Positions 7,132-39,218 of a stretch of 61,591 nucleotides of DNA are shown here, in pieces. The DNA is from an uncultured Geobacteraceae bacterium (GTDB lineage: Bacteria; Desulfobacterota; Desulfuromonadia; Geobacterales; Pseudopelobacteraceae). Location: the NCBI GenBank assembly GCA_903958085.1, contig CAJBRY010000657.1, positions 1 through 61,591 on the forward strand, written 5' to 3'. The notes under the pieces are model-generated. The model was not told where the DNA came from. It made no database searches and saw nothing but the letters and a program-made list of their open reading frames with translations. How positions within the stretch are numbered: position 1 is the first letter of the stretch; each line of letters starts with the position of its first letter. Made by a program: the position numbers and the translations under genes.

Positions 7132-7161
7132 TAAAAAACCCACCCAAAATCTTTGGGTGGG
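7132..7161 (-). terminator. Rho-independent terminator of gltD
   Basis: 10-bp stem cccacccaaa / tttgggtggg with a 3-nt loop, followed on the minus strand by T6. Confidence 0.8.
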
Positions 7162-7227
7162 CCTCACTGCCTCATAATATTGTCTGTTATAAAATATATT
7201 ATGCCTACTATTTAACCAGCCAAACAA

Positions 7228-19879: not shown

Positions 19880-19882
19880 AAA

Positions 19883-23645: not shown

Positions 23646-23698
23646 ATAATCCTCTCATGCTATAAATGCATCTAAAATATCCTGTGGCAGAAGGTTTA

Positions 23699-24619
23699 TT
23701 AGCCGTTGAAAAGAGAAAATATCCGACCAAAACGCTTCTTCAAACTACCAGCCATCTTTTCACTGAAAGAGAGCTTCAACGAGCGAAAATATTTCTTGAG
23801 GGCAGAGAGGGCAATCGTATCCTCTTCGACAGCGATTTTAGTTACAATAATTGGCTTATCACTTAGTTCGATATTAAAATGATCAATCGCAGCACAATTT
23901 ACTCCGCTTGCATCATATCCTATATTTTGTACCAATGACTTCCCTGGATACAATGTAAGGCTATTCGTCAAAAATGCTGAAGCATGCCAACGAACCGCCC
24001 ATGAATTGTTTTCGCCACGGGTTTGACGCTTCAGCATTTTGGTATATGAATAAGCACCATCAAGATCAAAAGAGCGCTCAAGATGTTTTTCTTTCAAACT
24101 TTGTAATAGCTGGCTACCATCCGGTTCAAAAAGTTTCCATCCACGCTTCCACGTTGCCCAGCCCCAGCAATCGGCGCCACGAAGAAAAAAAGTTTCCGGT
24201 AATTCTTCTTTAACAGGGTAAACATACCCATGAATGGAAATCACCCGCTCTTCATCGGCATAATAGTTGAGAGCATTATTCATATAGCTGAGAAAATGGG
24301 GAGAGGTTACTAAATCATCTTCAAGAACAATTACACGGCCAAACTCTGCAACAAGATCAGAGACCCCAGAGATGATTGAGCGTGAGAGGCCATAATTTTC
24401 TGACCGCTCAATAATTGTAACTGTGCAAAATCCATCCAAATTTTTAATAAAATCCCGCACATCACAAACACCCTTGTTAGCCTTATCATCTCGAGGAGCA
24501 TCAGAAAAAATAAAAAGGGCACTTTCAGCAGCCAGTTCATTGTTTGCAAGAGCATGAATAGTTTTGCGAGTGTGTTCAGGGCGATTGTAAGTAAATAAAG
24601 CTATGGGAGCTAGTGGCAT
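23699..24619 (-). CDS. GT-A fold glycosyltransferase (GT2-like)
   Basis: IALFTYNRPEHT start and VLEDDL acidic motif. 306 aa. Confidence 0.55.
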   Translation of the reverse strand: MPLAPIALFTYNRPEHTRKTIHALANNELAAESALFIFSDAPRDDKANKGVCDVRDFIKNLDGFCTVTIIERSENYGLSRSIISGVSDLVAEFGRVIVLEDDLVTSPHFLSYMNNALNYYADEERVISIHGYVYPVKEELPETFFLRGADCWGWATWKRGWKLFEPDGSQLLQSLKEKHLERSFDLDGAYSYTKMLKRQTRGENNSWAVRWHASAFLTNSLTLYPGKSLVQNIGYDASGVNCAAIDHFNIELSDKPIIVTKIAVEEDTIALSALKKYFRSLKLSFSEKMAGSLKKRFGRIFSLFNG

Positions 24620-24629
24620 AGGTTTTAGT

Positions 24630-25322
24630 TCATAACGTCAACATAGTTTTAAAAAACATGGTTCTTTGTGTCCTGCATAATAGTTCGTAATTCTGCTGTT
24701 TCATAAAGTTTGCAGTTTCAGAATTCAAAGAGCCCGCAAGATTTGTGCTCTTAATATCTTCTACCAGTACGTAAGTAGGCCGGTACTTAGACCAGTTATT
24801 CGAAATAAGCACTTTATAATCCATGCCCTCAACATCAATGGACATAAAATCAATGTTATTTCCAGGCAAGTACATATCAAGAATCTCGCTTAGTGGCATT
24901 GTTGTCATTTTTATTTCAGAAACAATATTGAAGCTGGTATTAGTATCCCTGTCTTTGCTCAGATCGCTGCTAAACCCGTTCAATGCAGGTTCATCAAACA
25001 TAAAGTATGTTAATTCCTGCTTAGTGTCTGATACCGCAATTTCAAGATTGATGTCATTGGGCCGGTAAAGATTGAAGAGATCCATCGCATGAGGCCTTGC
25101 CTCAATATTAATGCCTTTCCATCCTTTTAGATAAAAATGGTATGTGTTTGAAAACTTCATAGGATGATAAGCTCCTACGTCCACGTATGTCCCGTTTTTC
25201 TTGCCATGCAAAAGTTCTGCAAGCACCATGTCCTCTCCTTCCTGAGAAAAGGAGAGTCTGGAATATTTATTTGTATACTTCGTTTTTTTGAGTTTAAGGA
25301 GAATTTTCTCTGGAAAATTCAT
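24630..25322 (-). CDS. FkbM-family methyltransferase
   Basis: GTYVDVGAYHP and FMSIDVEGMDYKVL blocks are typical of FkbM-type sugar O-methyltransferases. Confidence 0.7.
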   Translation of the reverse strand: MNFPEKILLKLKKTKYTNKYSRLSFSQEGEDMVLAELLHGKKNGTYVDVGAYHPMKFSNTYHFYLKGWKGINIEARPHAMDLFNLYRPNDINLEIAVSDTKQELTYFMFDEPALNGFSSDLSKDRDTNTSFNIVSEIKMTTMPLSEILDMYLPGNNIDFMSIDVEGMDYKVLISNNWSKYRPTYVLVEDIKSTNLAGSLNSETANFMKQQNYELLCRTQRTMFFKTMLTL

Positions 25323-25352: not shown

Positions 25353-27113
25353 TTATTTTGAGTTAGCAAAATTTAGCAATTTACATGCAAGAGCATTCGA
25401 TTTAGCCTCTGCTTCAGGATCAGAATACAATCCACAGAGTAGTCTATGTACCTCGTGTTTTAGTCCAATTGTCTCTTCCTCTTCCGATACGAAAGGGTAT
25501 TGTATTTCAATATCCAGAATGGAATGCAATTGATCATGAATAATTTTATTAACATTAGTGGCTGCCATAAGTCTTTGAGATCTGTTCTTGCAGTCACTCA
25601 TTTGTTGTCGGCATGGTTTTAAAAAAGTTAATAGTTTGTTGAATTTTCTTGAGAAAAAAGGCAGCCTTTGTTGCAAATCATTCTTTGCAAAACTTTCTCC
25701 GATATCCAACAGAGAATAGTCATATTCCATTGCACACCATCTGTAGGTCATTCGAATTCTTTCAGAATCCCATCCCGCTTGCAACGCTTCCTCTAATTTA
25801 AGGAAATATTCTTTTTCAGTAGTTCCAACATAGTTCAGTTCGGACGGGTAGAAAACCAGTTCGCTTGAATATAGCACAACCGGTATTCCCAATAACGCCA
25901 TTTCTTTGCCAGATGATGACCATGCATTCAGAAAAACATCAGTGATGCTCGCCAGATCATAAAGCGAAATATTGTCAGTTGGCCAGTTCACCCGCACATT
26001 CTGGGGTGTTTTGGAGAATACTTCCTGTAAAACCTTGGCATGTTCAGACAGCATGTTTTCCCGTTTGTTGGGAAATTCGCGAGGATGAACCCGGATCAGC
26101 AATGCAAGGTCGTTTCTGTCTGCTACATATTCGATAAGAGCCTTGACCCAGTCCACCTGTTTTGTGAACATCAGGTTTTCAACTCTGGTGAGCACCCCTA
26201 CAGTTTCTGCCGCAAAGCGTTCATCATAACTACTAAGAGTAGCACAAATTACTTTCTGGACGGAATCAATACCAAAAAATGATTTCAAATCAGAGCTGCT
26301 GCCTTTTGCCGCCACAGAATATGCCCAAGCGCTCCTGCCTTTGAAAACCTCAAGGAAATGGTCTGTTACCGCTTTTAAGGCCACGTGAGGGCATGGATGT
26401 TCTTTGAACTCCTTCCATTTTTCCAACATATGCCTGTAAAATTCAACGGTATTATGCTTGGCCAGGATCAAGGTTTGAATCCTCTTCGACAGATTGCCCC
26501 CAGCATGCAGGAAATATTGAGGGACTCCATGCAATCCTGCTAGTCTGCAAAACACTCGGTTTACAGCATATAATGCGTTATAAACAACCAGGCGGTCAGG
26601 GTGTATTTGATTGAACATTCGCTGGGCAATGTGAAAAACTAGAAGAGCGTTTTTTAGGCTAGATTTGTAACGTTCCCATTCAGATGGTGAGAAATCCAGG
26701 TTGCTTTTTTTGGAATCAAGCAATATTTCATAAAGGGCAATTTTACCAACCTCAACTGAGTTAAGCGTCAGTTCCAAACAATTTTCAGGCGTAACCGATG
26801 TAATTATTTCTTCTATAGAGTTCAAATCAGCCGCCTGATATTTATCGGACAAATCAAAACCGGCAAAGCCAAATTGTTCGCAGATAATCTCTTTGTTCTT
26901 TTTACATAAACGGCAAATGCGTTGTTTTTTTTCTCTGTCTGCAGCAAAAGGTATGTCATGCGCACTCATGGAAATACAGTAATCATCCAACAAGCCGCCA
27001 CACCCGATATAGACGATTTCATGTCCCTGCTGCATCAATGCTTCAGCTATTAACGCTTCAGGAAAAGCGTGACCCCAAATGGCTGAGTTTGGTGCAAAAA
27101 ATAATATTTTCAT
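25353..27113 (-). CDS. Uncharacterised 586-aa GT-B-like protein with a KpsS/KpsC-type HP motif; candidate ulosonic/nonulosonic-acid transferase
   Basis: MKILFFAPNS... GT-B-like N-terminus. LIRVHPRE (HP motif) is followed by NAWSSSGKEMALLGIPVV, resembling the capsule_synth C-terminal domain. Directly downstream of pseI. Confidence 0.4.
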   Translation of the reverse strand: MKILFFAPNSAIWGHAFPEALIAEALMQQGHEIVYIGCGGLLDDYCISMSAHDIPFAADREKKQRICRLCKKNKEIICEQFGFAGFDLSDKYQAADLNSIEEIITSVTPENCLELTLNSVEVGKIALYEILLDSKKSNLDFSPSEWERYKSSLKNALLVFHIAQRMFNQIHPDRLVVYNALYAVNRVFCRLAGLHGVPQYFLHAGGNLSKRIQTLILAKHNTVEFYRHMLEKWKEFKEHPCPHVALKAVTDHFLEVFKGRSAWAYSVAAKGSSSDLKSFFGIDSVQKVICATLSSYDERFAAETVGVLTRVENLMFTKQVDWVKALIEYVADRNDLALLIRVHPREFPNKRENMLSEHAKVLQEVFSKTPQNVRVNWPTDNISLYDLASITDVFLNAWSSSGKEMALLGIPVVLYSSELVFYPSELNYVGTTEKEYFLKLEEALQAGWDSERIRMTYRWCAMEYDYSLLDIGESFAKNDLQQRLPFFSRKFNKLLTFLKPCRQQMSDCKNRSQRLMAATNVNKIIHDQLHSILDIEIQYPFVSEEEETIGLKHEVHRLLCGLYSDPEAEAKSNALACKLLNFANSK

Positions 27114-27156: not shown

Positions 27157-28206
27157 TCATGAAATAAGATTCCAACTAAGCGGCGTACCCTTAGACACGT
27201 CTTTTGAAACTTTCTTGCCGACTACAATGTCAAAATATTTTGGCGGCAAACCCAACCCAGGGCGTATTGCACGAAGGTTAGCCGTAGAAAAGAATTCACC
27301 AGCCCGCATATGTTCCGCCACATATAGCGAACGACGATATTGAAGGGACTTTTTTTCTGTTTCTGTCGGCCCATAACTGACACATCCCAACGCCTGCCAT
27401 GCCCGCTTTGTTTCAACTACCAGGCTCTGCATCTCGTCGGGTTCGAGGGAGAATACTGAATCAACACCACCGTCAGCCCTGTTAAGGGTAAAATGCTTTT
27501 CAATGACCGTTGCGCCCAGAGCCACTGCCGTGACAGCCGCCCCCACGCCCATGGTGTGGTCTGACAGTCCGACTCCAACATTAAAGAGCTCATGCAGGTG
27601 CGGTATGGTACGCAAATTGGAAGATTCTGGGGTGGCGGGGTAGCTGCTGGTGCATTTGAGCAGAACTATCTCGCGGCACCCTGCCTCCCGGGCTGCCCTT
27701 ACCGCCTCGTCCAGTTCGGCAACTGTGGCCATGCCGGTGGAGATGATCATCGGCTTGCCCGTTCTAGCTACTTTGCGCAGCAGCGGCAGATCGATATTCT
27801 CGAATGAGGCGATCTTGTAGCAGGGGACCTGCAATGATTCGAGAAAATCCACTGAGGTCGCGTCAAAGGGGGTACTGAAAAAGATAATTCCCAGCTCCTG
27901 GCACCGCTCCATAATAGGTTTGTGCCATTCCCACGGCGTATGCGCCTCCTGATAAAGCTCGTAAAGGCTTCTGCCGGTCCATAGATTTCCGGGATCACTG
28001 ACGAAAAACTCCCGTTCCCGCAGATCAAGCGTCATGGTGTCAGCAGTATAGGTCTGGATCTTCATGGCATCGACGCCGCACCTGGCCGCTGCTTCCACAA
28101 TCTCCAGTGCCCTTTCCAGAGACTGATTGTGATTGCCGGACATCTCCGCAATGATAAATGGCGGCTCAGCAGGGCCGATCAGCCTGCCGGCGATGTTAAT
28201 GGTCAT
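27157..28206 (-). CDS. pseI: Pseudaminic acid synthase (NeuB family)
   Basis: FIIAEMSGNHNQSLERALEIVEAAARCGVDAMKIQTY and a C-terminal SAF domain. Start set at ATG 28206 (MTINIAG). Confidence 0.85.
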   Translation of the reverse strand: MTINIAGRLIGPAEPPFIIAEMSGNHNQSLERALEIVEAAARCGVDAMKIQTYTADTMTLDLREREFFVSDPGNLWTGRSLYELYQEAHTPWEWHKPIMERCQELGIIFFSTPFDATSVDFLESLQVPCYKIASFENIDLPLLRKVARTGKPMIISTGMATVAELDEAVRAAREAGCREIVLLKCTSSYPATPESSNLRTIPHLHELFNVGVGLSDHTMGVGAAVTAVALGATVIEKHFTLNRADGGVDSVFSLEPDEMQSLVVETKRAWQALGCVSYGPTETEKKSLQYRRSLYVAEHMRAGEFFSTANLRAIRPGLGLPPKYFDIVVGKKVSKDVSKGTPLSWNLIS

Positions 28207-28229
28207 ATGGCCTCCTTGCCGGAAATGGT

Positions 28230-28979
28230 TCACGTCGTTGCAGCATGCTGGACCATCTCGTCCCACGATAACCAGTGCTCTGTGCCGCTGGCGATAAGTT
28301 CCAGCGTTTTCTCCGGACCTATATTCACTAGCGCGTCAATTATCGAAAGATAGGGAATAAATTCCTGGGGAGAGCCGATCTGCGCATATGTTTTCGGAAC
28401 ATAATTCTGAAAGCGGACCTCAATATCCTGAACAGGAAAGACAGCGTCCTCAAGCATATAGGGAAAAGAGCCGCGGGCGCAGACATAGGTTTTTGCCCCG
28501 CTCCAGCGCAACAGGTCGAGAACCCGCTGTGAGCGCTCTGTCTGCAAGGGGCATTGCGAACTATAGCAGAATTCCCGTTTGATCCCCAACAAACGGCAGG
28601 CCAAAAGAATAAAGTCTGTATTCTGGCTAGCCAGCGATGCGGCTTGCGCGAAAAACCACTGGTTGAGGTCAGGAGCTAATTCCGCGAAAAACGGAGCCTT
28701 GCTGTAATTCTGCTCCAGCCTTTTCCATAGTTTGGTGCGCCACGGGGTCGATTCATTGATTTCAGTTTGATTAAGAGCTGCCTTGAATGAATTTGACTTG
28801 CGAACCGGCACGCTGTACCAGTCGACCTGGCCGCGGTTGACAAAAAGGCGATTTCGCTGGTGGTAGCTTTGCACTGAAAACTGAAAGTCATCGAGAACAA
28901 TAAAACGATCCGACCGGTAGATCAGTTCAAAAAAACCCTGCCAGGGCAAAAAGGCCGGCTGCATCATGGCGACGACCAT
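28230..28979 (-). CDS. WbqC-family protein (function unknown)
   Basis: The MQPAFLPWQGFFELI start is the hallmark of the WbqC-like family found in O-antigen loci. Confidence 0.7.
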   Translation of the reverse strand: MVVAMMQPAFLPWQGFFELIYRSDRFIVLDDFQFSVQSYHQRNRLFVNRGQVDWYSVPVRKSNSFKAALNQTEINESTPWRTKLWKRLEQNYSKAPFFAELAPDLNQWFFAQAASLASQNTDFILLACRLLGIKREFCYSSQCPLQTERSQRVLDLLRWSGAKTYVCARGSFPYMLEDAVFPVQDIEVRFQNYVPKTYAQIGSPQEFIPYLSIIDALVNIGPEKTLELIASGTEHWLSWDEMVQHAATT

Positions 28980-28982
28980 ATT

Positions 28983-29480
28983 CTATGACCTCGTCAATTC
29001 CATGCCGATAATGTTGCAGCCACGGCCGGCCCAGACGCCGGCATCGCCGACAAGCGGCACTTCGACAAAGCCGATGTTTTGGTACATGGCATAAGCAGCC
29101 TTGTTAAAATCGGCAACATGCAGGTACATTTTATGGAAATGCATGTTTTCCATCCCCTCCTGCACCAGCAGTTTCGTCGCGCGAGTCCCGACCCCTTTGC
29201 CGCGAGTCGCCGGAGATCCCATATAAATCCACAATTCGCCTTCACTGCCGGCAATGATATTTTTGATGCCACAGTTGCCGACATGCTCGTTCTCGCAATA
29301 AATAGCGTAAACCTTTTGCGAAGAATCCGACAATAGCCTGGTGCAGTAGGTGACATGTCCTTCCCAGTCAGGTTCTCCCCGCATGAGAAACATGCGCCGC
29401 AGTTCAGGGTCGCAGATCCAGGCAAAGGTTTGCTGAAAATGGTCCTGCGAGAAGGCTACTAGTTGGATGTCATAATCCAT
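28983..29480 (-). CDS. GNAT N-acetyltransferase (PseH candidate)
   Basis: 165 aa. The RGKGVG acetyl-CoA loop and the FAWICDPELRRMF N-terminus are PseH-like. Confidence 0.6.
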   Translation of the reverse strand: MDYDIQLVAFSQDHFQQTFAWICDPELRRMFLMRGEPDWEGHVTYCTRLLSDSSQKVYAIYCENEHVGNCGIKNIIAGSEGELWIYMGSPATRGKGVGTRATKLLVQEGMENMHFHKMYLHVADFNKAAYAMYQNIGFVEVPLVGDAGVWAGRGCNIIGMELTRS

Positions 29481-29488
29481 GATACCGC

Positions 29489-30556
29489 CTAGATGTCATA
29501 GTCTGTGCATGTCGTACAGAATTCAACCTCGGCCATGCGCCCTTCGCTGTTGAGCCGGAGGATCTCATGTCTGGCGCTGCCGTTCCAGATCTCATGCAGC
29601 GTCTGTTTCTGGACGTCACCCAGGAACAGTTCGCCGTTATAGGAGGCATCGCACAAGGTGACATGCCCATTCGAACAAATAAAGCAATCATTGCGCGAAA
29701 CCCGCAGACATGTGGTCAGCGGCTTTCTTTCCCGCTGGCCAAGCCCGAAGCTGTTGTTGGGCAGGTTTACATACTCAAGCATATTGATGCTGACAATATC
29801 CGCATACCGGTAATGTTCGGCAATAAATGCATCAACCTCGTGTTGGGTGGTTTCCTGCTCGATCATCTGGCAATGGAGAAAGGGTTTCCTTGGGAGATTT
29901 TCCTGGCCTTTCAGTTTGTAAAAGGTGTCCAGGTTATCTCGGACGGCTTTGAAATCGCCTTCAGGGATAACCGTGTTGTAGGTGGCAGCGGTAACCGCAT
30001 GCATGGAAAAATTTATGTAATCGATATTTGAATCAAGCACGCAGTGAATATTGTCTTCCGTGAAATACTGGCCGTTGGTGCTCATCCAGATGACGCCGAG
30101 ATTTTTCTTCTGGCTGATGTGCCGGATGTTTTCTCTGAACTCTGGATGCAGCAGGGATTCGCCAAGATGGTAGAGCCATATGCCCTCAATGCCGTAGGAA
30201 TCGATCTCGTCAATAACTTTCCGGTAAAGTGAACCTTCCATATCCATGCGTGGCCGCTTCAGGTTGTTTTGCGGACACATCCGGCATAGATAATTGCACT
30301 TGCTGGTCATTTCGAACAAGATCCTTCTGGGGAAGGAGATGCGTTCAAGGTACCGTGAAGATGGGGGCATTCTCCTGATCGGTACGACAACCACATTGCG
30401 TGAGGCGAGTTCCTGTGCATAAGCAAGATTGTCAGGATCTTCAACCAGCTTCAACTCCTGGGTCATCTGCACCGGCTTCATTTTCCTCAGTTCGCTGAAC
30501 TTGGGGATCGCCGGTGCTTCTATCTGGTAATATCGTGATAAATCGAAAAATTCCAT
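29489..30556 (-). CDS. Radical SAM enzyme with C-terminal SPASM/twitch-like Cys-rich domain
   Basis: CNYLCRMC (Cx3Cx2C). C-terminal CLRVSRNDCFICSNGHVTLC...FCTTCTDYD. Confidence 0.8.
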   Translation of the reverse strand: MEFFDLSRYYQIEAPAIPKFSELRKMKPVQMTQELKLVEDPDNLAYAQELASRNVVVVPIRRMPPSSRYLERISFPRRILFEMTSKCNYLCRMCPQNNLKRPRMDMEGSLYRKVIDEIDSYGIEGIWLYHLGESLLHPEFRENIRHISQKKNLGVIWMSTNGQYFTEDNIHCVLDSNIDYINFSMHAVTAATYNTVIPEGDFKAVRDNLDTFYKLKGQENLPRKPFLHCQMIEQETTQHEVDAFIAEHYRYADIVSINMLEYVNLPNNSFGLGQRERKPLTTCLRVSRNDCFICSNGHVTLCDASYNGELFLGDVQKQTLHEIWNGSARHEILRLNSEGRMAEVEFCTTCTDYDI

Positions 30557-30585
30557 TTAGTAACTCCTTCTAAATCTCTTGGAGA

Positions 30586-31473
30586 TCAGGCCGAACGGGT
30601 TGTTGCATAGACAATCACCTGCCGGCCAAGATCCAGTTCCGCCAACGCCTGGTAAAACTTGACCAGTTTCTCTTTTTTGCCATGCTTGCGCATCAGGTAT
30701 TCAAATTTCACCCGTTTGTTATGGCACGCTTTGCCCAACTCCCCATTGCCGACATACACATCAGCCATGAGCAAGAACATCTCCAGCGGGAAGGAGGCTT
30801 CACTATGAAATACAGAATAGCCGCAATCAGCAAGCAGTTTTTTGACAGAAGTCGCGCTGAAATAATTGATATGGTTTGGCGGGCAGACCCACCACTGGTT
30901 AAGGCCATACTCCTTGTCTGCAATGGCCTGAAAATCATTGAATTCATTGGGTACGTCTATGATCAGCAACCCGTCCGGTTTCAGTAGTTTGGCCTTGATA
31001 TTCTGCAATGTCGCGGCTGGATCCCGCAGATGCTCCAGCACATTGATCAAGGTAACCACATCAAAGCGTTTGTCTCCAACGCAATCAAAATCCTCGATAC
31101 CGGCATTGTGCACATCCAGACCCTTGGAGCGGGCGTACTCAACCGCTTCCGGTGCAGGCTCAAGGCCGCTCACATCGAAGCCGCGCTCACGGAAATAGAG
31201 CAAGGCCTGGGCAAAGCCGAAACCGATATCGAAAAGCGACAGTGACGAATGCCCGAAATGTTCAACGCATTTGCGGTAGATGCTTTCCCATCTGTCCGTA
31301 AAGTAATCTTCTTCCTCTTCCTGCACCTTCAGGGAAGAATCATTGAAATTCTTGTAGTCGGATGAATAGAACTCCTGCTTGTAGAATTCCTCGACCTCCT
31401 GTTGGGTAGGTACCGGGTCGGCCCTGAGGAATCCATGTTCCGGATCACTGATTATCTTGAATTTATCTGCCAT
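30586..31473 (-). CDS. Class I SAM-dependent methyltransferase
   Basis: LFDIGFGFAQ motif I, VVTLINVLEHL and LKPDGLLIIDVPN. Confidence 0.75.
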   Translation of the reverse strand: MADKFKIISDPEHGFLRADPVPTQQEVEEFYKQEFYSSDYKNFNDSSLKVQEEEEDYFTDRWESIYRKCVEHFGHSSLSLFDIGFGFAQALLYFRERGFDVSGLEPAPEAVEYARSKGLDVHNAGIEDFDCVGDKRFDVVTLINVLEHLRDPAATLQNIKAKLLKPDGLLIIDVPNEFNDFQAIADKEYGLNQWWVCPPNHINYFSATSVKKLLADCGYSVFHSEASFPLEMFLLMADVYVGNGELGKACHNKRVKFEYLMRKHGKKEKLVKFYQALAELDLGRQVIVYATTRSA

Positions 31474-31475
31474 CG

Positions 31476-32549
31476 TTATCCCCTTGGTGATTTATGGATA
31501 TTATCAGCGCAGCGTGCGACGCCGTTGCCGTCAACCAGCATCATTGCCTTGACGGATTGCTGTTTTAGCTGCTCCGGCCCCACCATGCATTCTTCCAGGG
31601 CCCGGGCAATCTGCTCAGACGTTATGGCATCTGCTTCACCCAGATAGGTCAGCGCGCCAATGCGGTGCAGGTCTCTGGTCGCTGCTATCTGGCTCGGCGA
31701 AGTTGTCATGACCAGGGAGGGGAGGCCAAGGCAGGAGCGCTCCCAGGTGGTTGTGCCTGGCGCCCCCACATACAGGTCACTGGCCGCTATCAGTTCCGCC
31801 ATGTTGTTGACCTGAATATGTAGGTCAACTTTCTCCATGTTCGAGGCCTCTGTTTTCAGCTTCTCCTGATGGGGATTATGCAAGCCCACGACAACGTCGA
31901 AAAAGAGTTCTGGATGTTTCAAATGGCCTATGGCCTGCAACACTTTGACGGTGGCATTACCGAGGTCGCTGCCGCCGAAGAAGACCAGGACGCGTCTGAC
32001 ACAGCCGTCCCGATGCCGCAGTTTTTTTCGCGCTGCGGCAAATTCATCACGCAAAAGCGCATAGGCAGGGCCTAACAGCATCTGGCATGTCGAAGGCACC
32101 AAACCAGGATAACGGTTGTCGCTGTCAGTGTAATAATTCTGGTCCAGCAGCACATCACAGTCATGGCGGCGATCGGCAAGATCGTCAATAACGAATATGT
32201 TTCGGGCAACAGGCCGCAGCGCTGATTCCCATGCATAATCCAGACGGTAATGGTCAAGCACAAGCCAGTCGATACCACCGGATTCATGCAGGTTCGTCAG
32301 ACACTGTCCGGCATCATTCTGCCAGTCTGCTTCTGGCTCCCCTACAAGACGGATGCGCACCACCGGATAACCCTTGTTTTCAACAAGGTTAATCAGGTTG
32401 CCGGGAACATCCCTGCAGAGAAAGCTTACCTGCGCCCCCCGACTTTTTAGCTCCTCGGCCAGTGTCAGGCAGCGCATGACATGCCCGCTGCCTATGCTCA
32501 GTGAGGCGTCAGCGCGGAAGCCAACGCGTATGCCTTTCAGGCGGTTCAC
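31476..32549 (-). CDS. pseG: UDP-2,4-diacetamido-2,4,6-trideoxy-beta-L-altropyranose hydrolase
   Basis: FRADASLSIGSGHVMRCLTLAEEL is the typical PseG N-terminus. GT-B-like, 357 aa. Confidence 0.8.
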   Translation of the reverse strand: MNRLKGIRVGFRADASLSIGSGHVMRCLTLAEELKSRGAQVSFLCRDVPGNLINLVENKGYPVVRIRLVGEPEADWQNDAGQCLTNLHESGGIDWLVLDHYRLDYAWESALRPVARNIFVIDDLADRRHDCDVLLDQNYYTDSDNRYPGLVPSTCQMLLGPAYALLRDEFAAARKKLRHRDGCVRRVLVFFGGSDLGNATVKVLQAIGHLKHPELFFDVVVGLHNPHQEKLKTEASNMEKVDLHIQVNNMAELIAASDLYVGAPGTTTWERSCLGLPSLVMTTSPSQIAATRDLHRIGALTYLGEADAITSEQIARALEECMVGPEQLKQQSVKAMMLVDGNGVARCADNIHKSPRG

Positions 32550-33835
32550 CGTACCTTGAAGAGAGGTTCTAGCGGCTTGCAGCGCAGATAATCCGCCATC
32601 TTCCTGTTGTCAACAGCGTCTTTCAGAATGGGCAGAACCTCATTGTACGCGTTGAGCAGCTTGGTGACGTCGTCGTCGGAATGGGCATAGTTCATGTTGT
32701 GCGAGCCCAGTGTCATAATGCCTCGGGCAAGCATCTCCTGCATGAACAAGGTCTTCAGCTCCCATACCGAATAAGGGTCGCAATCTTTCAGGATCATAAA
32801 CGACCAGACTGGGAGGCCTGCCAGATAGGCAAAATGACCGGCGTAATGCTGCTCGAGCAGTCCCGCCAAACCATCCAGCACTTTTTTCCCCTGTTTGCCG
32901 ATGGAGGCGATGACAGGTTCCCGCTGCAACTTGGTCATGGTTGCCAGCGATGCGGCCAGTGAGAGGGTTTCACCGCCAAAGGTGAAGGAGAAGAACACCT
33001 CTTCCATCAAGCGCATGATCTCCGCCTTGCCGGCCACTGCAGACAACGGATAGCCATTGGCAAGCCCCTTGCCGAAGGTGGCAAGATCGGGGGTGACTCC
33101 AAAATATTCCTGAGCGCCGCCGTTGGCGAAGCGGAAGCCTGTCACTGTTTCGTCAAAGATAAGTACGGCGCCGTTGCGGTGCGCTACATCCTGCACCTTG
33201 GAGAGGAAACCGTCGGCCGGTTCGGTAATGTTCATCGGCTCTAGGATAACCGCGGCGATCTGATCCCGATATTCCTTGAAAAGAGCGATGAGCGAATCAA
33301 TGTCATTATAGGTAAAGGTATGAGTTAGATCGCTGGTAGCCTTAGGGACGCCAAGATTGCGCGCGGTGGTGCCGATAAACCAGTCCTGCCAGCCATGATA
33401 GCCGCAGGCGGCCACCCGGTCACGGCCGGTGTAGGCCCGCGCAATCCTGACCGCACCGGCGGTGGCATCGGAACCATTCTTGCCGAAACGGACCTTCTCG
33501 GCACAGGGCACCATTTCCACTATCTTCTCAGCCACTTGTACCTCCAGGGTGTGCGGCAGCGAGAAGATTACCCCCTCCTCAAGCTGGGCCTTTACGGCGG
33601 CATTGACGTCAGGATCGCAATAGCCAAGGGTGATGGCAGCCAGCGAGTTGATAAAATCAATATATTCATTGCCGTCAATATCCCATACATGGCTTCCTTT
33701 GCCGCGGGCTATGAAATATGGCGATACCCCATACGGAAACTGCACCTTGCTTTTGCTGAAGGTTTGAGAACCGAGCGGGATCGTCTGCAGAGCCCGTTCC
33801 AGCATTTCTTCAGAGTTGTGATAGCGTTGCGACAT
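32546..33835 (-). CDS. Class III aminotransferase (glutamate-1-semialdehyde aminomutase-like)
   Basis: GKNGSDATAGAVRIAR and IFDETVTGFR..., with PLP Lys context ATFGKGLANG. 429 aa. Confidence 0.8.
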   Translation of the reverse strand: MSQRYHNSEEMLERALQTIPLGSQTFSKSKVQFPYGVSPYFIARGKGSHVWDIDGNEYIDFINSLAAITLGYCDPDVNAAVKAQLEEGVIFSLPHTLEVQVAEKIVEMVPCAEKVRFGKNGSDATAGAVRIARAYTGRDRVAACGYHGWQDWFIGTTARNLGVPKATSDLTHTFTYNDIDSLIALFKEYRDQIAAVILEPMNITEPADGFLSKVQDVAHRNGAVLIFDETVTGFRFANGGAQEYFGVTPDLATFGKGLANGYPLSAVAGKAEIMRLMEEVFFSFTFGGETLSLAASLATMTKLQREPVIASIGKQGKKVLDGLAGLLEQHYAGHFAYLAGLPVWSFMILKDCDPYSVWELKTLFMQEMLARGIMTLGSHNMNYAHSDDDVTKLLNAYNEVLPILKDAVDNRKMADYLRCKPLEPLFKVR

Positions 33836-33839
33836 GGCT

Positions 33840-34616
33840 TTATCCTTTGTGTGTAAGATTTGGCGGGATGCAATCCATCAATAATGATTTTTGCAGACCC
33901 TCATTACGGCTGAAATGGGTATTGAATGTTATGAAGTCCGGATGCTCCTTTAACCAGCAGAGGATATCGGCGGTTGTGAAGCATGGGTTGGCCGGATACA
34001 ACTCCTCGTAGATCCTGGTGATGAGCTCGAAATCAGCAGGCTCGTCAACCGTCCAGCGCAGTTCAGACAGATCATGTTCGCCTTTAAAGCTTCCCAGTTT
34101 GAAGAGGTCTGGCTGCTGGTGGATGAAAAGGGTCACGTGCTCCCGCTGGGAAGTGAGCTTTGCCTCAAGCCAGGCTTGTCCCAGACACTTGAAGCGAAAG
34201 ATCTCCACATCGAGGCCATCGGGGAAAGTCGGCTCAAGGGCGCTGCTGGTATAATCAAAGTTGCCGGCCAGATGATGTGCCACTACCTGGTCAATCAAGT
34301 CCGGGTCGGCCAGCGGACAGTCTCCGGTCAGGCGTACCACATGCTCGGGCTGATAGGACTTTGCTGCTTGGTAGAATCGCTCAAGCACATCATTGAGGCT
34401 ACCCCGAAAACAGGGAATACCCTTATCAAGACAAACCGACTCAATGGGGGTGTCACTTGCGTCACTGCTGGTAGCAACCAGCAGCTTGTCCAGGGATGTC
34501 GCGCGTTTCACTCTTTCGAGCTGCCGGAACAGCATCGGTTCACCAAGAATATTTTTCAATACCTTGCCCGGTAATCGCGATGAAGAAACCCGGGCCTGCA
34601 GGATGGCCAGGATCAT
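33840..34616 (-). CDS. SpsF-type cytidylyltransferase-family protein (possible CMP-sugar synthetase)
   Basis: MILAILQARVSSSRLPGKVLK start at ATG 34616, in ATGA overlap with the upstream GNAT stop. The 38-aa track extension is discarded. Confidence 0.7.
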   Translation of the reverse strand: MILAILQARVSSSRLPGKVLKNILGEPMLFRQLERVKRATSLDKLLVATSSDASDTPIESVCLDKGIPCFRGSLNDVLERFYQAAKSYQPEHVVRLTGDCPLADPDLIDQVVAHHLAGNFDYTSSALEPTFPDGLDVEIFRFKCLGQAWLEAKLTSQREHVTLFIHQQPDLFKLGSFKGEHDLSELRWTVDEPADFELITRIYEELYPANPCFTTADILCWLKEHPDFITFNTHFSRNEGLQKSLLMDCIPPNLTHKG

Positions 34617-35170
34617 TTTTTCACTCCTTGCCAATAGTCCTGGGCAGTGATGCCAAGAAGGACGGCATCGTACAGCACACCATTGCTCATGCCATGGGAG
34701 CGCAGGAGCCCCTCCTGCAGATATCCACATTTTTCAAAAGCTTTCATGCTTCCCAAATTAGTAGCATGGCAACCGGCTTTGATTTTGTTGAGATTCAACA
34801 TGTGAAAAGCATAGTCGGTGACCACCTGAATCGCTTCAGTGGCCAGGCCTTTTCCCCAGTAATTCTTGTCGCCGATAAAGAGGCTGATGTCAGCGTTGCG
34901 GTGGTGCCAGTTAATGGGGCCAAGCTTGATATTGCCGATATGCAGATCGTTTTCTTTTAAACAGATTGCCATAAAAGGTTCATTTTCCTTGGCATCCATC
35001 CGCTTCACAAAGTCAGCGATATTGTCGAGCGAACGGGGCACAAAACGCGTTTCCAGGAACTGGTAGATCTCCGGGTCATTGAGCCAGGAATAATAACGCT
35101 CGTTGACATCGCTCAGACGTACTTCGCGCAGGTAGATTCGTTCGCTGGAAAGATAATAGACATTGTTCAT
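34613..35170 (-). CDS. GNAT N-acetyltransferase (RimJ/RimL-like)
   Basis: YWGKGLATEA acetyl-CoA loop. 185 aa. Confidence 0.7.
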   Translation of the reverse strand: MNNVYYLSSERIYLREVRLSDVNERYYSWLNDPEIYQFLETRFVPRSLDNIADFVKRMDAKENEPFMAICLKENDLHIGNIKLGPINWHHRNADISLFIGDKNYWGKGLATEAIQVVTDYAFHMLNLNKIKAGCHATNLGSMKAFEKCGYLQEGLLRSHGMSNGVLYDAVLLGITAQDYWQGVKK

Positions 35171-35201
35171 ATCAATCTCCTGATATTTGTTAGTTTAACT
35201 G

Positions 35202-36089
35202 TTATTGCAACTTCCAGAGGGCCGGATTCACAAGCCCTTCATCAGCGCAGGCAAAGCGCTCATAACTGATGGTGTTGGCCGGAAGCGCAGTTGCTGCAGC
35301 AACAATTTGCTGCAGTTCACTGCCGGAACAGACGCCGACAATAACGTGGTCGATCTCCACGATGTCCATGACAAATTTCAATGTGGCCTGAAGCTGGGAA
35401 AACCCTTTGTTCCGGGCTTCACGGGAGAATGACTCCAGAATGCCAACGTAAGGAGCGAAGTATGGATTAAGGGCTGCTGCATCCATCAAAAGCAGGCCCT
35501 GTAAAAAGGCCGAACGGCTGTGGATTTCAACTCCCGCCTGCTTGAGCCGCTTCAGTTGGCCGCCGTTTAGTAACCGCTGGTCAAGAACATTGACCGGCAC
35601 CTGCACCAGATCCGGGGTGAAACGATGAAGTATTGCATCAAGCTGCTGCCCGGTGTAGGCGGAGAATCCCCATTTGCTGATCAGCCCCTGTTGTTTGAGT
35701 GCACAGACTCTCTCAACCAGCACCGATGACTCATCCGTCAGCAAATCATCGGCATGATGGAACATCAGGCCATGAATCGCCTCTTTTTGCAGGGACTTGA
35801 GGGAATGGAGAAATGTCTGCTCCAACCGGTCTGCCTCGGCTTTCAAATCGCCGGTAACATCAAAGCGCGGAGTTTTCGTCACAATGGCAAAATCATGCCC
35901 CAGGGAGGCAAGAGCCTGTCCGAGCACGGTTTCACTGGTGCCATACATGGAGGCGGTGTCGATGACGCTGATTCCGATGCGGGCAGCCAGATCCAGGATG
36001 TGCAGCACTTCATCAGCCGGTGTTCTGCCGGCTGTATTTGATATGCCGTAGTCCAGGCCGAACTGGACGGTGCCGAGGCCGAGTTTCAC
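35202..36089 (-). CDS. Aldo/keto reductase
   Basis: LGLGTVQFGLDYG...IDTASMYGTSE is a typical AKR N-terminus. 4-nt overlap with the pseC stop. Confidence 0.8.
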   Translation of the reverse strand: MKLGLGTVQFGLDYGISNTAGRTPADEVLHILDLAARIGISVIDTASMYGTSETVLGQALASLGHDFAIVTKTPRFDVTGDLKAEADRLEQTFLHSLKSLQKEAIHGLMFHHADDLLTDESSVLVERVCALKQQGLISKWGFSAYTGQQLDAILHRFTPDLVQVPVNVLDQRLLNGGQLKRLKQAGVEIHSRSAFLQGLLLMDAAALNPYFAPYVGILESFSREARNKGFSQLQATLKFVMDIVEIDHVIVGVCSGSELQQIVAAATALPANTISYERFACADEGLVNPALWKLQ

Positions 36090-37249
36090 TGCAGCACCCT
36101 TAACAGGGTATCAATCACATAATCTTGTTGCTCTTCAGTCAGGCCAAAATAGAGCGGCAGGCTGATGGCCTCCTGGTAATATTGCTCAGCCTGTGGGTAA
36201 TCCCCAGCCCTGAAGCCAAGCTGCTGGTAGTACGGATGGGTATGCACCGGGATATAGTGCAGGTTGACGCCTATATTTGCCTGGCGCAATTCTTCAAAAA
36301 CCTGGCGTCTGGACTTGATAATCAGTTCAAGATTGAGCCGGATGACGTAGAGGTGGTAGGCGGAATAACAGTCCGGATGCTGGTAGGGCAGGGTGAGCGG
36401 CAAAGGCGCCAAGAACCGGTCATATCGTTTTGCCAGCAGATGGCGACGCGTGACGAATTCATCCAGACGTGACATCTGGCTCACTCCGAGGATGGCCTGC
36501 ATATCGGTCATGCGGTAGTTGAAGCCCAGCGCAATCTGCTGATAATACCAGGGGCCGTCGCTTTCTCCGGCCATCAGCGCCGGGTCGCGGGTAATGCCGT
36601 GTGAACGAAGACGAACCAGCGTATCATATAGTTCTTTTTTGTTGGTCAGCACCATTCCGCCTTCACCAGTAGTGATAATCTTCACGGGATGAAAACTGAA
36701 AATAGTCATGTCAGAGAAGGCGCAGGCGCCGATTTTATGGTTGCCATAACGGCCGCCAATGGCGTGTGAGGCATCTTCAATTACCGTTACATTGTATTTG
36801 GCGGCGCATGCGGCGATTTCCGGCATCCTGCAGGACTGGCCAGCAAAATGAACCGGCACTACCACATCCGGGAGTTTGCCGGATGCTGCGGCTATTTGCA
36901 GTTTTCGGGAAAATTCAATGGTGCTCAGGTTGTATGTTTTTGGATCGATGTCAACAAAGTCAACCTCGGCACCGCAGTAAAGTCCGCAATTGGCCGAGGC
37001 AACAAAGGTGTTCGGCGATGTCCAGAGACGCTTGCCTGGGGCAAGTCCGGCTGCCAAGCAGGCGATGTGCAGGGCCGAAGTCGCGCTGTTTACCGCCACT
37101 GCATACTTGGCGCCGCAGTAATCAGCAACAGTGCTCTCGAACAATTCTATAGCGGGGCCTTGAGTCAGCCAATCGGAAGCCAAAACATCAACCACTGCCT
37201 GAATGTCTTTCTCAGAAATATTCTGCCGACCATAGGGGATAGCTTTCAT
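36086..37249 (-). CDS. pseC: UDP-4-amino-4,6-dideoxy-N-acetyl-beta-L-altrosamine transaminase
   Basis: MKAIPYGRQNISEKDI start is typical of PseC. DegT-family body with FSFHPVKIITTGEGG (PLP Lys). Confidence 0.85.
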   Translation of the reverse strand: MKAIPYGRQNISEKDIQAVVDVLASDWLTQGPAIELFESTVADYCGAKYAVAVNSATSALHIACLAAGLAPGKRLWTSPNTFVASANCGLYCGAEVDFVDIDPKTYNLSTIEFSRKLQIAAASGKLPDVVVPVHFAGQSCRMPEIAACAAKYNVTVIEDASHAIGGRYGNHKIGACAFSDMTIFSFHPVKIITTGEGGMVLTNKKELYDTLVRLRSHGITRDPALMAGESDGPWYYQQIALGFNYRMTDMQAILGVSQMSRLDEFVTRRHLLAKRYDRFLAPLPLTLPYQHPDCYSAYHLYVIRLNLELIIKSRRQVFEELRQANIGVNLHYIPVHTHPYYQQLGFRAGDYPQAEQYYQEAISLPLYFGLTEEQQDYVIDTLLRVLQ

Positions 37250-37254
37250 CTTGC

Positions 37255-38271
37255 TTAAGCCTCTACGTAAAAGTCTGGGTCAACATGCTCAGAAATCAAT
37301 GTCCTAATTTGCTCCACACTTAACCATTCGGAATTGCTGCCGCTGTTGTAGTTAAATCCCTGAGTGCAGCGTTTGCCTTTAAAAGCCTCGATAAAATCGT
37401 CAATATTCCAGAGCGGAATTGAGGGAAGAATGACGAAGTACTTCTCAAATTCAAGCGTATTAATGGAGTCTGTTGTGGTAATCATCTCTTCATGGAGTTT
37501 TTCACCAGGGCGAATACCAACGATGTTCTTTTGACATTTTGGTCCAATTGCATCAGCAATGTCGGTAATTCGATAGCTTGGAATTTTAGGGACAAAAATT
37601 TCGCCGCCCCACATGTTTTCAAGTGCGTATAGTACGAGCTCAACACCATCTTGAAGAGTTATATTAAATCTGGTCATCTGCTCGTCGGTAATTGGCAATA
37701 GACCTTCCTGTCGTTTTTCAAGGAAGAAAGGAATTACACTACCCCTACTTCCCATGACATTTCCATATCTCACGACTGAAAATTTGATGTCGCGCTTCCC
37801 TTTATAATTATTTGCAGCAACAAAAAGCTTGTCCGAACAGAGTTTTGTAGCCCCATACAGGTTTATTGGTGCTGCTGCCTTATCCGTGCTCAAGGCAACC
37901 ACCTTTTTTATCCCTTTGTCAATTGCGGACTCAATGACATTTTGAGCACCAATAATGTTGGTTTTTATGGCCTCAAACGGATTATATTCACATGCTGGAA
38001 CTTGCTTCAACGCAGCAGCATGAATAACGATGTCAATCCCCTCCAATGCCCGCATAAGACGCTCTTTGTCACGGACATCCCCAATGAAAAACCGGACTTT
38101 ACGTTCAGAACCTTCTGGCATGCATTGCGCCATTTCATATTGCTTCAACTCATCACGCGAATATACAACTAATCTCTCAATTTCAGGATACGTCTCCAGT
38201 ATAGTCGTAACAAACTTTTTCCCGAATGATCCGGTCCCGCCAGTAATAAGAATAGATTTATAATTTAACAT
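37255..38271 (-). CDS. pseB: UDP-N-acetylglucosamine 4,6-dehydratase (inverting)
   Basis: ILITGGTGSFGKKF, YGATK (YxxxK), 338 aa, immediately upstream of pseC. Confidence 0.88.
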   Translation of the reverse strand: MLNYKSILITGGTGSFGKKFVTTILETYPEIERLVVYSRDELKQYEMAQCMPEGSERKVRFFIGDVRDKERLMRALEGIDIVIHAAALKQVPACEYNPFEAIKTNIIGAQNVIESAIDKGIKKVVALSTDKAAAPINLYGATKLCSDKLFVAANNYKGKRDIKFSVVRYGNVMGSRGSVIPFFLEKRQEGLLPITDEQMTRFNITLQDGVELVLYALENMWGGEIFVPKIPSYRITDIADAIGPKCQKNIVGIRPGEKLHEEMITTTDSINTLEFEKYFVILPSIPLWNIDDFIEAFKGKRCTQGFNYNSGSNSEWLSVEQIRTLISEHVDPDFYVEA

Positions 38272-38363: not shown

Positions 38364-38468
38364 TTATCTGTACATTGCCAGCAGAGCATCAATCAATACC
38401 TTGGCATGCCCACCGGCGCCCAGAATCAGAACTGGCGTGTTGATGAATCTAGCGCCTTTATCCCTCAT
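38364..38468 (-). pseudogene. Remnant of a NeuD/PglD-type sugar N-acetyltransferase (N-terminal 34 codons only)
   Basis: Small ORF MRDKGARFINTPVLILGAGGHAKVLIDALLAMYR*. ILGAGGHAKV is the N-terminal Rossmann-like motif of the NeuD/PglD family, normally about 200 aa. Its ATG overlaps the 3' end of hepT. Confidence 0.45.
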
Positions 38469-38907
38469 CCACTTCTCCCGCTACCCTGGCCGGCTTGATT
38501 TTAGAGCGCATAACACTGGTAATCTGTTCTGCCAGGCGTACATATTCAGGTAATCGCCGCCATATCGACTCTGCCATCTCTTGACGATAGATATGACTGA
38601 GTTGATTTCTGTCATTGATCGCTCGGATAAGCAGTTCATATAACTCATAATCGCAGTAACCTGCCTCTACAAATTCTTTTGCAACTGATTTCGGGGTGAT
38701 GACATCGACACCATCGACCTCAAATAGGAATATCTGGACTGTTTTCCAAAGCAGCTCGACTGTGAACTCAAATTTCTGAATCTGCCCGGACTTGATATTA
38801 TCCGCCACAAGCTCTGGAAACAATGAGGGTTCGAGCGTCAACGCATCGTGAAAGTTTGATAATGCTGCGTCCAGGTCGTTTAGTTTGCGCGTGAACTTTG
38901 TTTCCAT
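38458..38907 (-). CDS. hepT: HEPN-domain toxin, HI0074/HepT family (nucleotidyltransferase substrate-binding protein)
   Basis: 149 aa. Rx4H motif RNQLSH followed by IY. 28-nt overlap with the upstream MNT gene. Confidence 0.75.
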   Translation of the reverse strand: METKFTRKLNDLDAALSNFHDALTLEPSLFPELVADNIKSGQIQKFEFTVELLWKTVQIFLFEVDGVDVITPKSVAKEFVEAGYCDYELYELLIRAINDRNQLSHIYRQEMAESIWRRLPEYVRLAEQITSVMRSKIKPARVAGEVDEG

Positions 38908-39218
38908 ATTATAACCTCTTTCATGACAACTTCTCTAAAGCTGCTCGGAACCATGTCAATATTCACCAAATCAACATGGTGCGGAATCACGCTCTCTTCC
39001 AGCTCTGAAAGCAGGCGATCTCTGGCTTTAGTGAATTCCTGCTCACTTAATCCGCTGAAACCTATATCGAAGTCAGAGCTTCTACGATGTACGCCTCGTG
39101 CACGTGATCCAAATAAAAAAATAGTACAATCCAGATTGGATGTTATTCGAAGCACCAAGCCCCGCATTTGGTTGAGGTATTTCAATTCGATCATATCGTT
39201 ATGGAGAGTTTCTTCCAT
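38880..39218 (-). CDS. mntA: Minimal nucleotidyltransferase (MNT) antitoxin, MntA family
   Basis: 112 aa. LFGSRARG...SDFDIGF (GS-X-DxD pol-beta NTase motif). GGAG RBS 8 nt upstream. Confidence 0.75.
   Translation of the reverse strand: MEETLHNDMIELKYLNQMRGLVLRITSNLDCTIFLFGSRARGVHRRSSDFDIGFSGLSEQEFTKARDRLLSELEESVIPHHVDLVNIDMVPSSFREVVMKEVIIWKQSSRAN

Follow-up and report, generated by a model that had tools for sequence, protein, structure and literature searches.

What kind of sugar is produced when the genes for pseudaminic acid (Pse) biosynthesis are interleaved with as many as eight genes for which the established pathway has no place? This question is raised by a contig of an uncultured Geobacteraceae bacterium (GenBank assembly GCA_903958085.1, contig CAJBRY010000657.1, positions 1 to 61,591; the whole of these 61,591 nucleotides is hereafter called the window), in which the interval 27157-38271 is filled by twelve co-directional open reading frames (ORFs), all on the minus strand. 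An initial annotation of this interval had recognised pseB, pseC, pseG and pseI, had counted eight further genes, of which at most two could take the PseH and PseF roles so that six were left over, and had considered an undescribed nonulosonic acid derivative to be the likely product. Scans with profile hidden Markov models (NCBIfam/TIGRFAM, Pfam and PRK) against curated cut-offs, from which the family calls given below derive, reproduced each of its twelve family assignments, and its count holds as well: with the two roles assigned to an FlmC-type cytidylyltransferase and to an N-acyltransferase designated GNAT_B, the six remaining genes encode an aldo/keto reductase (AKR), a second N-acetyltransferase (GNAT_A), a class-III aminotransferase, an S-adenosylmethionine (SAM)-dependent methyltransferase (MT), a radical SAM enzyme (rSAM) and a WbqC-family protein. 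The eight additional genes are not a loose set; they form two modules. We put at roughly 55% the probability that the operon encodes a complete route from UDP-N-acetylglucosamine (UDP-GlcNAc) to a Pse-type nonulosonate activated with cytidine monophosphate (CMP), together with two conserved tailoring modules, and, judged by gene content, the product would most likely be a CMP-activated, further aminated or oxidised and methylated Pse derivative that is attached to lipopolysaccharide (LPS).

The core of the pathway is readily recognised. The first gene of the operon, pseB (37255-38271; TIGR03589, PF02719), is predicted to encode the inverting UDP-GlcNAc 4,6-dehydratase and is followed by pseC (36086-37249; TIGR03588) for the UDP-4-amino-4,6-dideoxy-L-AltNAc aminotransferase; pseG (31476-32549; TIGR03590), for the UDP-2,4-diacetamido-2,4,6-trideoxy-L-altrose hydrolase, lies further downstream, and pseI (27157-28206; TIGR03586), for pseudaminic acid synthase, closes the operon, its start probably being the ATG at 28206, which differs from that of the longest ORF. 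Scores of 536 bits for PseB (cut-off 408), 552 bits for PseC (cut-off 424), 308 bits for PseG (cut-off 154) and 507 bits for PseI (cut-off 340) mark these four proteins, by profile, as clear equivalogs of the Pse pathway, and the 310 bits of PseI against the NeuB model, under the cut-off of 400, place it with the Pse type and not with the Neu or legionaminic acid (Leg) type. As in the CMP-Pse5Ac7Ac pathway of Campylobacter jejuni and Helicobacter pylori (PseB, PseC, PseH, PseG, PseI and PseF), biosynthesis would start from UDP-GlcNAc with four equivalogous enzymes; unlike that pathway, the window provides neither a PseF nor a GNAT that reaches the PseH cut-off, adds six further conserved enzymes and sets the genes in an LPS rather than a flagellar context.

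A canonical PseF is absent, no match to TIGR03584 at E<1e-5 having been found among the operon products. The candidate for its role is the cytidylyltransferase encoded at 33840-34616, which scores 113 bits against PF02348 and 125 bits against PDB 6oew and shares 44% identity over 233 aa (E 2e-61) with Caulobacter FlmC, the sequence of which was extracted from a synthetic operon given as supplementary material to PMC7591256; its start was placed at 34616, shorter than the longest ORF, where the FlmC homology begins. FlmC, which lacks homology to PseF, is the enzyme predicted to act as cytidylyltransferase in a set of six Pse enzymes that suffices for flagellin glycosylation in Escherichia coli (PMC7591256), and it has been demonstrated that a Bacillus subtilis spsF deletion mutant still makes legionaminic acid but loses its delivery onto the spore surface (PMC7439481). 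For FlmC and SpsF alike, the cytidylyltransferase activity itself was deduced from genetics and reconstitution (PMC7591256, PMC7439481). The FlmC/SpsF-type enzyme of the window is probably the CMP-nonulosonate synthetase that takes the PseF role, because PseF replaces the gene set to which it belongs, module 1, in two related loci (related loci are numbered with the prefix L): the Desulfocapsa locus L013 encodes a true PseF (310 bits) exactly at the position of module 1 in the window, and in L018 PseF is likewise present and module 1 absent. The Caulobacter crescentus Flm (FlmA/B/H/D, NeuB, FlmC) and B. subtilis Sps (SpsF/SpsG) systems use the same non-PseF cytidylyltransferase family, the gene adjoining that of a PseG-type hydrolase, but their published descriptions include no associated oxidoreductase, class-III aminotransferase or MT/rSAM/WbqC genes, whereas the cytidylyltransferase gene of the window is flanked by, and in its relatives fused to, oxidoreductase and aminotransferase genes. 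With regard to PseH, the model TIGR03585 gives 52 bits for GNAT_B and 40 bits for GNAT_A against a cut-off of 93; GNAT_B (28983-29480; PF13302), a PseH-like N-acyltransferase for which PseH is the best NCBIfam match, albeit below the cut-off, is the one of the two that the cassette conserves, and it probably fills the PseH role.

The operon is no isolated case: it is one copy of a widespread, horizontally moving cassette that is found in many phyla and in an archaeon. When one genome per species was scanned and the neighbourhoods were annotated by BLAST, a near-collinear order was seen to recur, namely PseB-PseC-AKR-cytidylyltransferase-aminotransferase-PseG-MT-rSAM-GNAT-WbqC-PseI. The Rhodocyclaceae metagenome-assembled genome (MAG) 'ACC004' (L004) has the gene order of the window minus GNAT_A, a Candidatus Methanoperedens MAG (L005), the archaeon in question, carries the cassette with an rSAM that is 72% identical, and near-collinear copies occur in Syntrophaceae, Verrucomicrobia, Desulfonema magnum 4be13 (NZ_CP061800, L017) and Desulfovibrio, some isolates of which encode P0243, the cassette being present also in the magnetotactic Rhodospirillaceae strain LM-1 (L020). 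Reduced or rearranged versions are found in Omnitrophota (L008), where the module-2 part and the aminotransferase are retained and AKR and cytidylyltransferase are undetectable, in Elusimicrobia, where module 2 is rearranged (WbqC-MT, an intervening gene, PseI, rSAM), and in a Candidatus Zambryskibacteria MAG of the candidate phyla radiation (L021), in which MT, WbqC and GNAT_B went undetected and only rSAM (44% identical), AKR, cytidylyltransferase, aminotransferase and PseI are encoded. That both the last of these and the Methanoperedens MAG are carriers implies that a surface-sugar pathway has been passed horizontally between domains. The carrier locus L001 stems from an uncultured Acetobacterium. 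An Acetobacterium genome has the same gene set beside flagellin and a Maf protein, indicating that the cassette serves both LPS/O-antigen and flagellin glycosylation.

This near-identical gene order in more than a dozen unrelated genomes puts the twelve-gene arrangement far from chance, and it also bears on the notion that the twelve genes are not one unit at all, a canonical pse set having been interleaved with unrelated genes by repeated insertion. Such a history would agree with the host-like GC content of pseB, which differs from that of the rest of the operon, and with GNAT_A, to which nothing corresponds at the same place in the related loci. It is scarcely credible, however, given that the same interleaved order is present in unrelated phyla, that neighbouring genes are fused in some of them, and that the short gaps and overlaps already described by the initial annotation are borne out, all junctions within the twelve-gene operon lying between -4 (a 4-nt overlap) and 31 nt, with terminator-like sites inside the operon in no excess over shuffled sequence (13 versus 15 expected).

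Module 1 comprises the oxidoreductase, the cytidylyltransferase and the class-III aminotransferase. The AKR gene (35202-36089; PF00248, 97 bits) overlaps pseC by 4 nt, and its product has a KidO-like family as top NCBIfam match (170 bits, under the cut-off); a role as a KidO-like regulator was rejected on the ground of a conserved catalytic tetrad, D44/Y49/K72/H111, which was assigned by motif inspection and is retained in 10 orthologues. The pyridoxal phosphate (PLP)-dependent aminotransferase (32546-33835) resembles glutamate-1-semialdehyde (GSA) aminomutase (PF00202, 187 bits; PRK06209 'GSA-like', 430 bits, cut-off 486), yet it is not a true HemL, its HemL score being 266 bits against a cut-off of 527 and every HemL cut-off remaining above it, and both the Schiff-base lysine K256 and the PLP-binding D228 are conserved in 11 orthologues. 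Cytidylyltransferase-aminotransferase fusions occur in four related loci (L009, L017, L020 and L026), and a cytidylyltransferase-AKR fusion has been reported in Vibrio sp. B9-25K2 (PMC7371886). By gene content and fusions, module 1 is a unit whose three genes travel together. In one of the loci with a fusion, L026, a Gfo/Idh/MocA oxidoreductase stands in for AKR. Gfo/Idh/MocA oxidoreductases are the typical dehydrogenase partners of sugar aminotransferases, and the pairing of a dehydrogenase with an aminotransferase is the usual route by which an amino group is placed on a sugar; for this reason module 1 is proposed to aminate, or to re-reduce, an oxidised C8 or C4 hydroxyl.

A new amine might also have to be capped, and variable N-acyl-transfer genes beside module 1 fit this need. 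GNAT_A (34613-35170; PF13302, 98 bits), a RimL/SSAT-like N-acetyltransferase, sits inside the module of the window, between oxidoreductase and cytidylyltransferase, a position at which no GNAT was found in the related loci, its matches there being weak only and directed to GNAT_B-position or PseH-like GNATs. Formyltransferase genes stand beside the module in L018 and L026, and a FemAB-like gene with an NCBIfam match is present in L018, its BLAST-clustered homologues in L020 and L021 being without a family match.

The module 1 set has been encountered before. The O-antigen cluster of Legionella pneumophila Sg6/Sg12 combines a PseG homologue with a GSA-like aminotransferase, a cytidylyltransferase and an aryl-alcohol dehydrogenase, and Vibrio sp. 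B9-25K2 produces a nonulosonate which has the mass of PseAc2 with a different retention time and fragmentation, and which its authors read as an epimer or positional isomer (PMC7371886). For module 1 the initial annotation needs correction, as the set is already on record in these Vibrio and Legionella Pse-type loci, which differ from the window in that no MT-rSAM-WbqC module has been reported from them. A Vibrio product that is isobaric with PseAc2 and behaves differently suggests a modified skeleton.

The same compound can be read in another way, namely that the product is plain Pse5Ac7Ac or a stereoisomer of the same mass, AKR and aminotransferase, or rSAM, merely epimerising the sugar, or the extra enzymes being accessory or redundant. 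In its favour, six enzymes suffice in Caulobacter and E. coli, the Vibrio strain with the cytidylyltransferase-AKR fusion does yield an isobaric compound, and both class-III fold enzymes and rSAM enzymes of the Twitch type, to which that of the window is assigned below, include epimerases; moreover, the CMP-sugar pool of an Accumulibacter enrichment consists mainly of a di-N-acetyl CMP-nonulosonate. It is nevertheless improbable: MT, a dedicated partner of rSAM, stays at 47-71% identity in different phyla, an indication that the mass rises by at least 14 Da, and neutrality is not to be expected of six extra enzymes that have intact active sites and are conserved in bacteria and an archaeon alike.

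Module 2 consists of MT, rSAM and WbqC, which stay together down to 37% rSAM identity (L026), and its presence beside a canonical PseF in the Desulfocapsa locus indicates that it is independent of module 1. The MT gene (30586-31473; PF13489, Methyltransf_23, 81 bits), for a class I SAM methyltransferase, has counterparts of 47-71% identity in 17 loci and adjoins the rSAM gene in most of them, one or two genes intervening in L017, L018 and L019. The rSAM gene (29489-30556; PF04055 and PF13186) encodes a protein in which the CX3CX2C motif (C87/C91/C94) is invariant in 18 of 18 sequences. The initial annotation spoke of a radical SAM/SPASM enzyme, of which the first half stands and the second does not: the Pfam SPASM model (PF13186) does match with 40 bits, but just four C-terminal cysteines are invariant (C283, C302, C347 and C350; C291 is kept in 16/18 and C294 in 12/18) in place of the seven that serve two auxiliary clusters in SPASM proteins, and these four align with those of BtrN, the 2-deoxy-scyllo-inosamine dehydrogenase of butirosin biosynthesis. 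The family profile matches BtrN over the core and the C-terminal auxiliary-cluster domain (E 1e-15), and a Foldseek search with an AlphaFold2 (AF2) model (pLDDT 85) returned BtrN (4m7t) first (E 4e-11, TM 0.66), followed by SkfB, SuiB, anSME, MoaA, DesII and BlsE. Because BtrN is nearest by profile and by fold and only four C-terminal cysteines are invariant, rSAM is classed as a Twitch-type small-molecule enzyme with one auxiliary cluster, a kind that works on small substrates resembling amino sugars, rather than as a SPASM peptide maturase with two clusters.

In the reaction of BtrN a carbinol of an amino-cyclitol is oxidised, and transamination of the product follows, a logic that by analogy would fit an rSAM encoded beside aminotransferases. 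The window enzyme differs from BtrN in its low identity (about 17%), in its ties to MT and WbqC and in an extra N-terminal domain of about 75 aa, which is common to a few dozen clusters at 50% identity (58 library matches below 1e-30, with about 13,000 more distant relatives). Homologues with 57-80% identity to rSAM form at least 175 clusters, none of which bears a functional name; a plasmid collection searched with the same protein gave one distant MoaA-like match only. A 751-aa rSAM in L010 that looked like a fusion proved to be an ORF extension without recognisable domain. In a Candidatus Binatia MAG (L002/L015, 6372-7436), an rSAM copy that is 66% identical was observed in isolation, the surrounding 6-10 kb being free of pse, methyltransferase and WbqC genes; its neighbours are another rSAM/SPASM gene, a gene of the helix-turn-helix (HTH)/ATPase-like type and toxin-antitoxin genes.

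The third member of module 2, WbqC (28230-28979; PF08889, 203 bits, cut-off 21), has neither an NCBIfam match nor a PDB sequence match. In three independent cases (P0149, L024 and L025) a PseH-like GNAT is fused to WbqC, and these fusions, which put WbqC at the N-acylation step, raise the question whether the extra enzymes build or remodel an N-acyl substituent and not the nine-carbon skeleton. The 4-amino sugar would then receive an unusual group, for instance an aminoacyl one, from WbqC and the fused GNAT, MT, rSAM, AKR and aminotransferase would make or modify the side chain, and the product would be Pse with an exotic acyl group at N7 (or N5). The FemAB-like and formyltransferase genes of the related loci point in the same direction, as signs of variable N-acylation, and most known Pse and Leg diversity lies in N-acyl groups; the WbqC family is named after an O-antigen cluster, and the namesake O-antigen presumably carries an N-acetyl-glycyl 4-amino-6-deoxyhexose. 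We regard this explanation as unlikely, because aminotransferase and oxidoreductase are fused to the cytidylyltransferase and not to acyltransferases, so that their substrate should be the nonulosonate or CMP-nonulosonate; moreover, the cassette conserves no gene for an acyl-CoA ligase, an acyl carrier or an ATP-grasp enzyme, and WbqC does not resemble any ligase in its fold. Families known to tailor Pse and Leg (the amidotransferase PseA, PtmG/PtmH, and formyl- and hydroxybutyryl-transferases) resemble the cassette in that extra enzymes of the locus diversify the sugar before its transfer, but none of these families is represented in the window.

In several sister loci (L009, L024, L012, L017, L008 and L014), the stretch between pseG and the MT-rSAM pair holds one or two genes for B12-binding rSAM proteins and, in addition, a gene for a conserved protein of some 380 aa, for which a faint polysialyltransferase/BFO_1060-like match was obtained; the insertions of this B12-rSAM/~380-aa set are found at 6408-7952 and 13459-14859 in L009 and at 6391-7935 and 13449-14855 in L024. 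No B12-rSAM gene is present in the window. A further reading, which we hold to be quite improbable, is that MT, rSAM and WbqC, with the oxidoreductase-aminotransferase pair, rework the Pse skeleton itself through radical SAM oxidation at C8, C-methylation to C10 and/or a third amino group. In a more specific form, in which the rSAM/MT pair alters the skeleton by, for example, C8 oxidation and C9 methylation to give a ten-carbon ulosonic acid, and the B12-dependent radical SAM methylases of sister loci would add further carbons, the idea appears very improbable. Magnetospirillum gryphiswaldense contains CMP-linked ulosonic acids with a C10 marker fragment and ammonia loss, for which the searched passages of a preprint give no gene assignment (bioRxiv 10.64898/2026.04.20.719630), and these compounds, the B12-binding rSAM genes beside MT-rSAM and the presence of the cassette in the magnetotactic Rhodospirillaceae genome of LM-1 would all be consistent with it. 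Yet the homologues found with the LM-1 rSAM include no Magnetospirillum protein, so that this link is not established, the window is devoid of a B12-rSAM gene and MT has no similarity to known sugar C-methyltransferases, which leaves chemical plausibility as the basis of this proposal.

In our preferred reading, that of a Pse route extended by two tailoring modules, PseB and PseC would convert UDP-GlcNAc, GNAT_B would carry out the PseH-type N-acylation, possibly together with WbqC, and PseG and PseI, by their family membership, would give the Pse-type nonulosonate. AKR would turn a free hydroxyl at C8 or C4 of the nonulosonate into a ketone, from which the class-III aminotransferase would form an amine, or which re-reduction would return as an epimer, in step with CMP activation, and GNAT_A would acetylate the new amine; this scheme for module 1 (oxidation, amination or epimerisation, CMP activation) is tentative, and its chances fall somewhat short of even. 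In module 2, rSAM would remove hydrogen from the amino sugar at a carbinol carbon and so lead to dehydrogenation or epimerisation, MT would add a methyl group, and WbqC would act with the PseH-like GNAT in N-acylation, a sequence of events that is possible and is offered with distinctly more reserve. The FlmC-type enzyme would make the CMP-sugar, for which the LPS core or outer core would be the probable acceptor and a 586-aa protein encoded next to the operon the candidate transferase, and the cassette as a whole would have been acquired horizontally by a Geobacteraceae/Desulfuromonadaceae-like host.

Several observations weigh against this reading. The FlmC-type enzyme of Caulobacter shows that a usable CMP-Pse can be obtained with neither AKR nor aminotransferase, and most aminotransferase-bearing loci have one GNAT, so that the extra amine would often be free or capped by something unrecognised. 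BtrN-like enzymes include epimerases besides dehydrogenases, and an identity of 17% to BtrN does not fix the reaction of rSAM. For WbqC, the AF2 model (pLDDT 93) gave no fold match in the PDB (best E 0.2, TM <=0.35), and the databases searched hold no structural or functional precedent for the family. The predicted transferase role of the 586-aa protein depends on a 26-bit match and is tentative. No carrier with a characterised glycan or CMP-sugar was found, so the tailoring chemistry as a whole is deduced from gene families, and the mainly di-N-acetyl CMP-nonulosonate of the Accumulibacter enrichment adds to this: if the Rhodocyclaceae MAG L004 is Accumulibacter, the product could be isobaric with Pse5Ac7Ac. 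The claim that an undescribed nonulosonate derivative is likely is therefore upheld in part: conserved catalytic residues, synteny and fusions make it plausible, while the uncharacterised products of the carriers keep it at the level of prediction. What is already known comprises the Pse core, the FlmC-type substitution (Caulobacter, Bacillus) and module 1 (Vibrio, Legionella), and what appears to be new is the MT-rSAM-WbqC module: no description of it, or of a radical SAM step in nonulosonate biosynthesis, was found in full-text searches of the literature, no model for it was found in curated NCBIfam, and a 2026 paper on Clostridium Pse mentions none of these extra genes. Papers on Accumulibacter yielded nothing at the level of genes.

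The setting of the operon is an LPS locus and not a flagellar one. It is embedded in a co-directional array that leads from BamA by way of the Lpx genes, WaaA and LpxK to glycosyltransferases, in transcription order BamA, Skp, LpxD, FabZ, LpxA, LpxB, MsbA, a lipid-A acyltransferase, PAP2, WaaA, LpxK, a heptosyltransferase, three GT2 and one GT4 glycosyltransferases, a methyltransferase and a HEPN/nucleotidyltransferase pair; the pse operon follows, and after it come the 586-aa protein, methyltransferases, a second dehydratase/aminotransferase pair and another heptosyltransferase. With nearly 40 kb in one direction (18860-57368), complete lipid-A (Raetz) genes included, this is an unusually consolidated envelope supercluster. 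No Rfam family and no tRNA were found in the window. As to the host, the small subunit of glutamate synthase groups at 90% with MAG proteins of Geobacteraceae and Desulfuromonadaceae.

GC content from pseC to pseI is 0.51-0.55 in every 1-kb window but one (0.47 at 30-31 kb), compared with 0.38-0.45 in the adjoining flanks, and both pseB (0.44) and the low-GC 586-aa gene are host-like in this respect. Because of this contrast, and because the cassette occurs in many phyla and an archaeon, most of the operon looks to have been acquired horizontally. The 586-aa gene (25353-27113, minus strand), which lies directly downstream of pseI and outside the interval of the initial annotation, encodes a candidate nonulosonate glycosyltransferase that weakly matches BFO_1060-type glycosyltransferases (26 bits, E 4e-6) and has neither a Pfam or PDB match nor a homologue in the related loci; at its position, TIGR04396 and LIC12162-family transferases are encoded in L013 and L008. 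At the other edge, directly upstream of pseB, a 34-codon ORF read from the sequence (38364-38468, minus strand; MRDKGARFINTPVLILGAGGHAKVLIDALLAMYR) has a product which we take to resemble the N-terminal GAGGH motif of NeuD/PglD-type sugar acetyltransferases before it stops, and it may be a gene remnant or scar at the edge of an acquired island.

Two further observations concern the flanks. A toxin-antitoxin-like pair of a HEPN-type protein (PF08780) and a minimal nucleotidyltransferase (PF01909/PF18765), at 38458-39218 on the minus strand, separates the LPS-core glycosyltransferase genes from the pse operon. On the far side of the operon, the region 18860-25322, also on the minus strand and of host-like GC, encodes an FkbM methyltransferase, a GT2/GNT-I-like protein, a methyltransferase, a 313-aa protein, a 4,6-dehydratase-like protein of the short-chain dehydrogenase/reductase (SDR) family, a DegT aminotransferase and a GT9 heptosyltransferase, a set that probably makes another amino-deoxy sugar for the same LPS.

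As decorations of flagella, capsules and LPS, pseudaminic and legionaminic acids influence motility, recognition by phages and evasion of immunity, and until now variation in N-acyl and O-acyl groups has served to account for the diversity of these acids. The cassette described here would add radical SAM chemistry, probably together with extra amination, to the tailoring of nonulosonates, as a unit that moves among many anaerobic lineages, candidate phyla and an archaeon included. If the reading with a ten-carbon skeleton or a third amine were true, it would supply the missing genetic basis of unassigned higher-carbon CMP-ulosonic acids detected by mass spectrometry, and the first radical SAM step in nonulosonate biosynthesis. 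Resting on comparative genomics, the finding bears on both glycobiology and radical SAM enzymology, and the cassette offers a cultivable handle on the WbqC family, on the BtrN-like family and on the companions of FlmC-type cytidylyltransferases. In practice, genome-based 'Pse' calls in environmental bacteria may hide different sugars.

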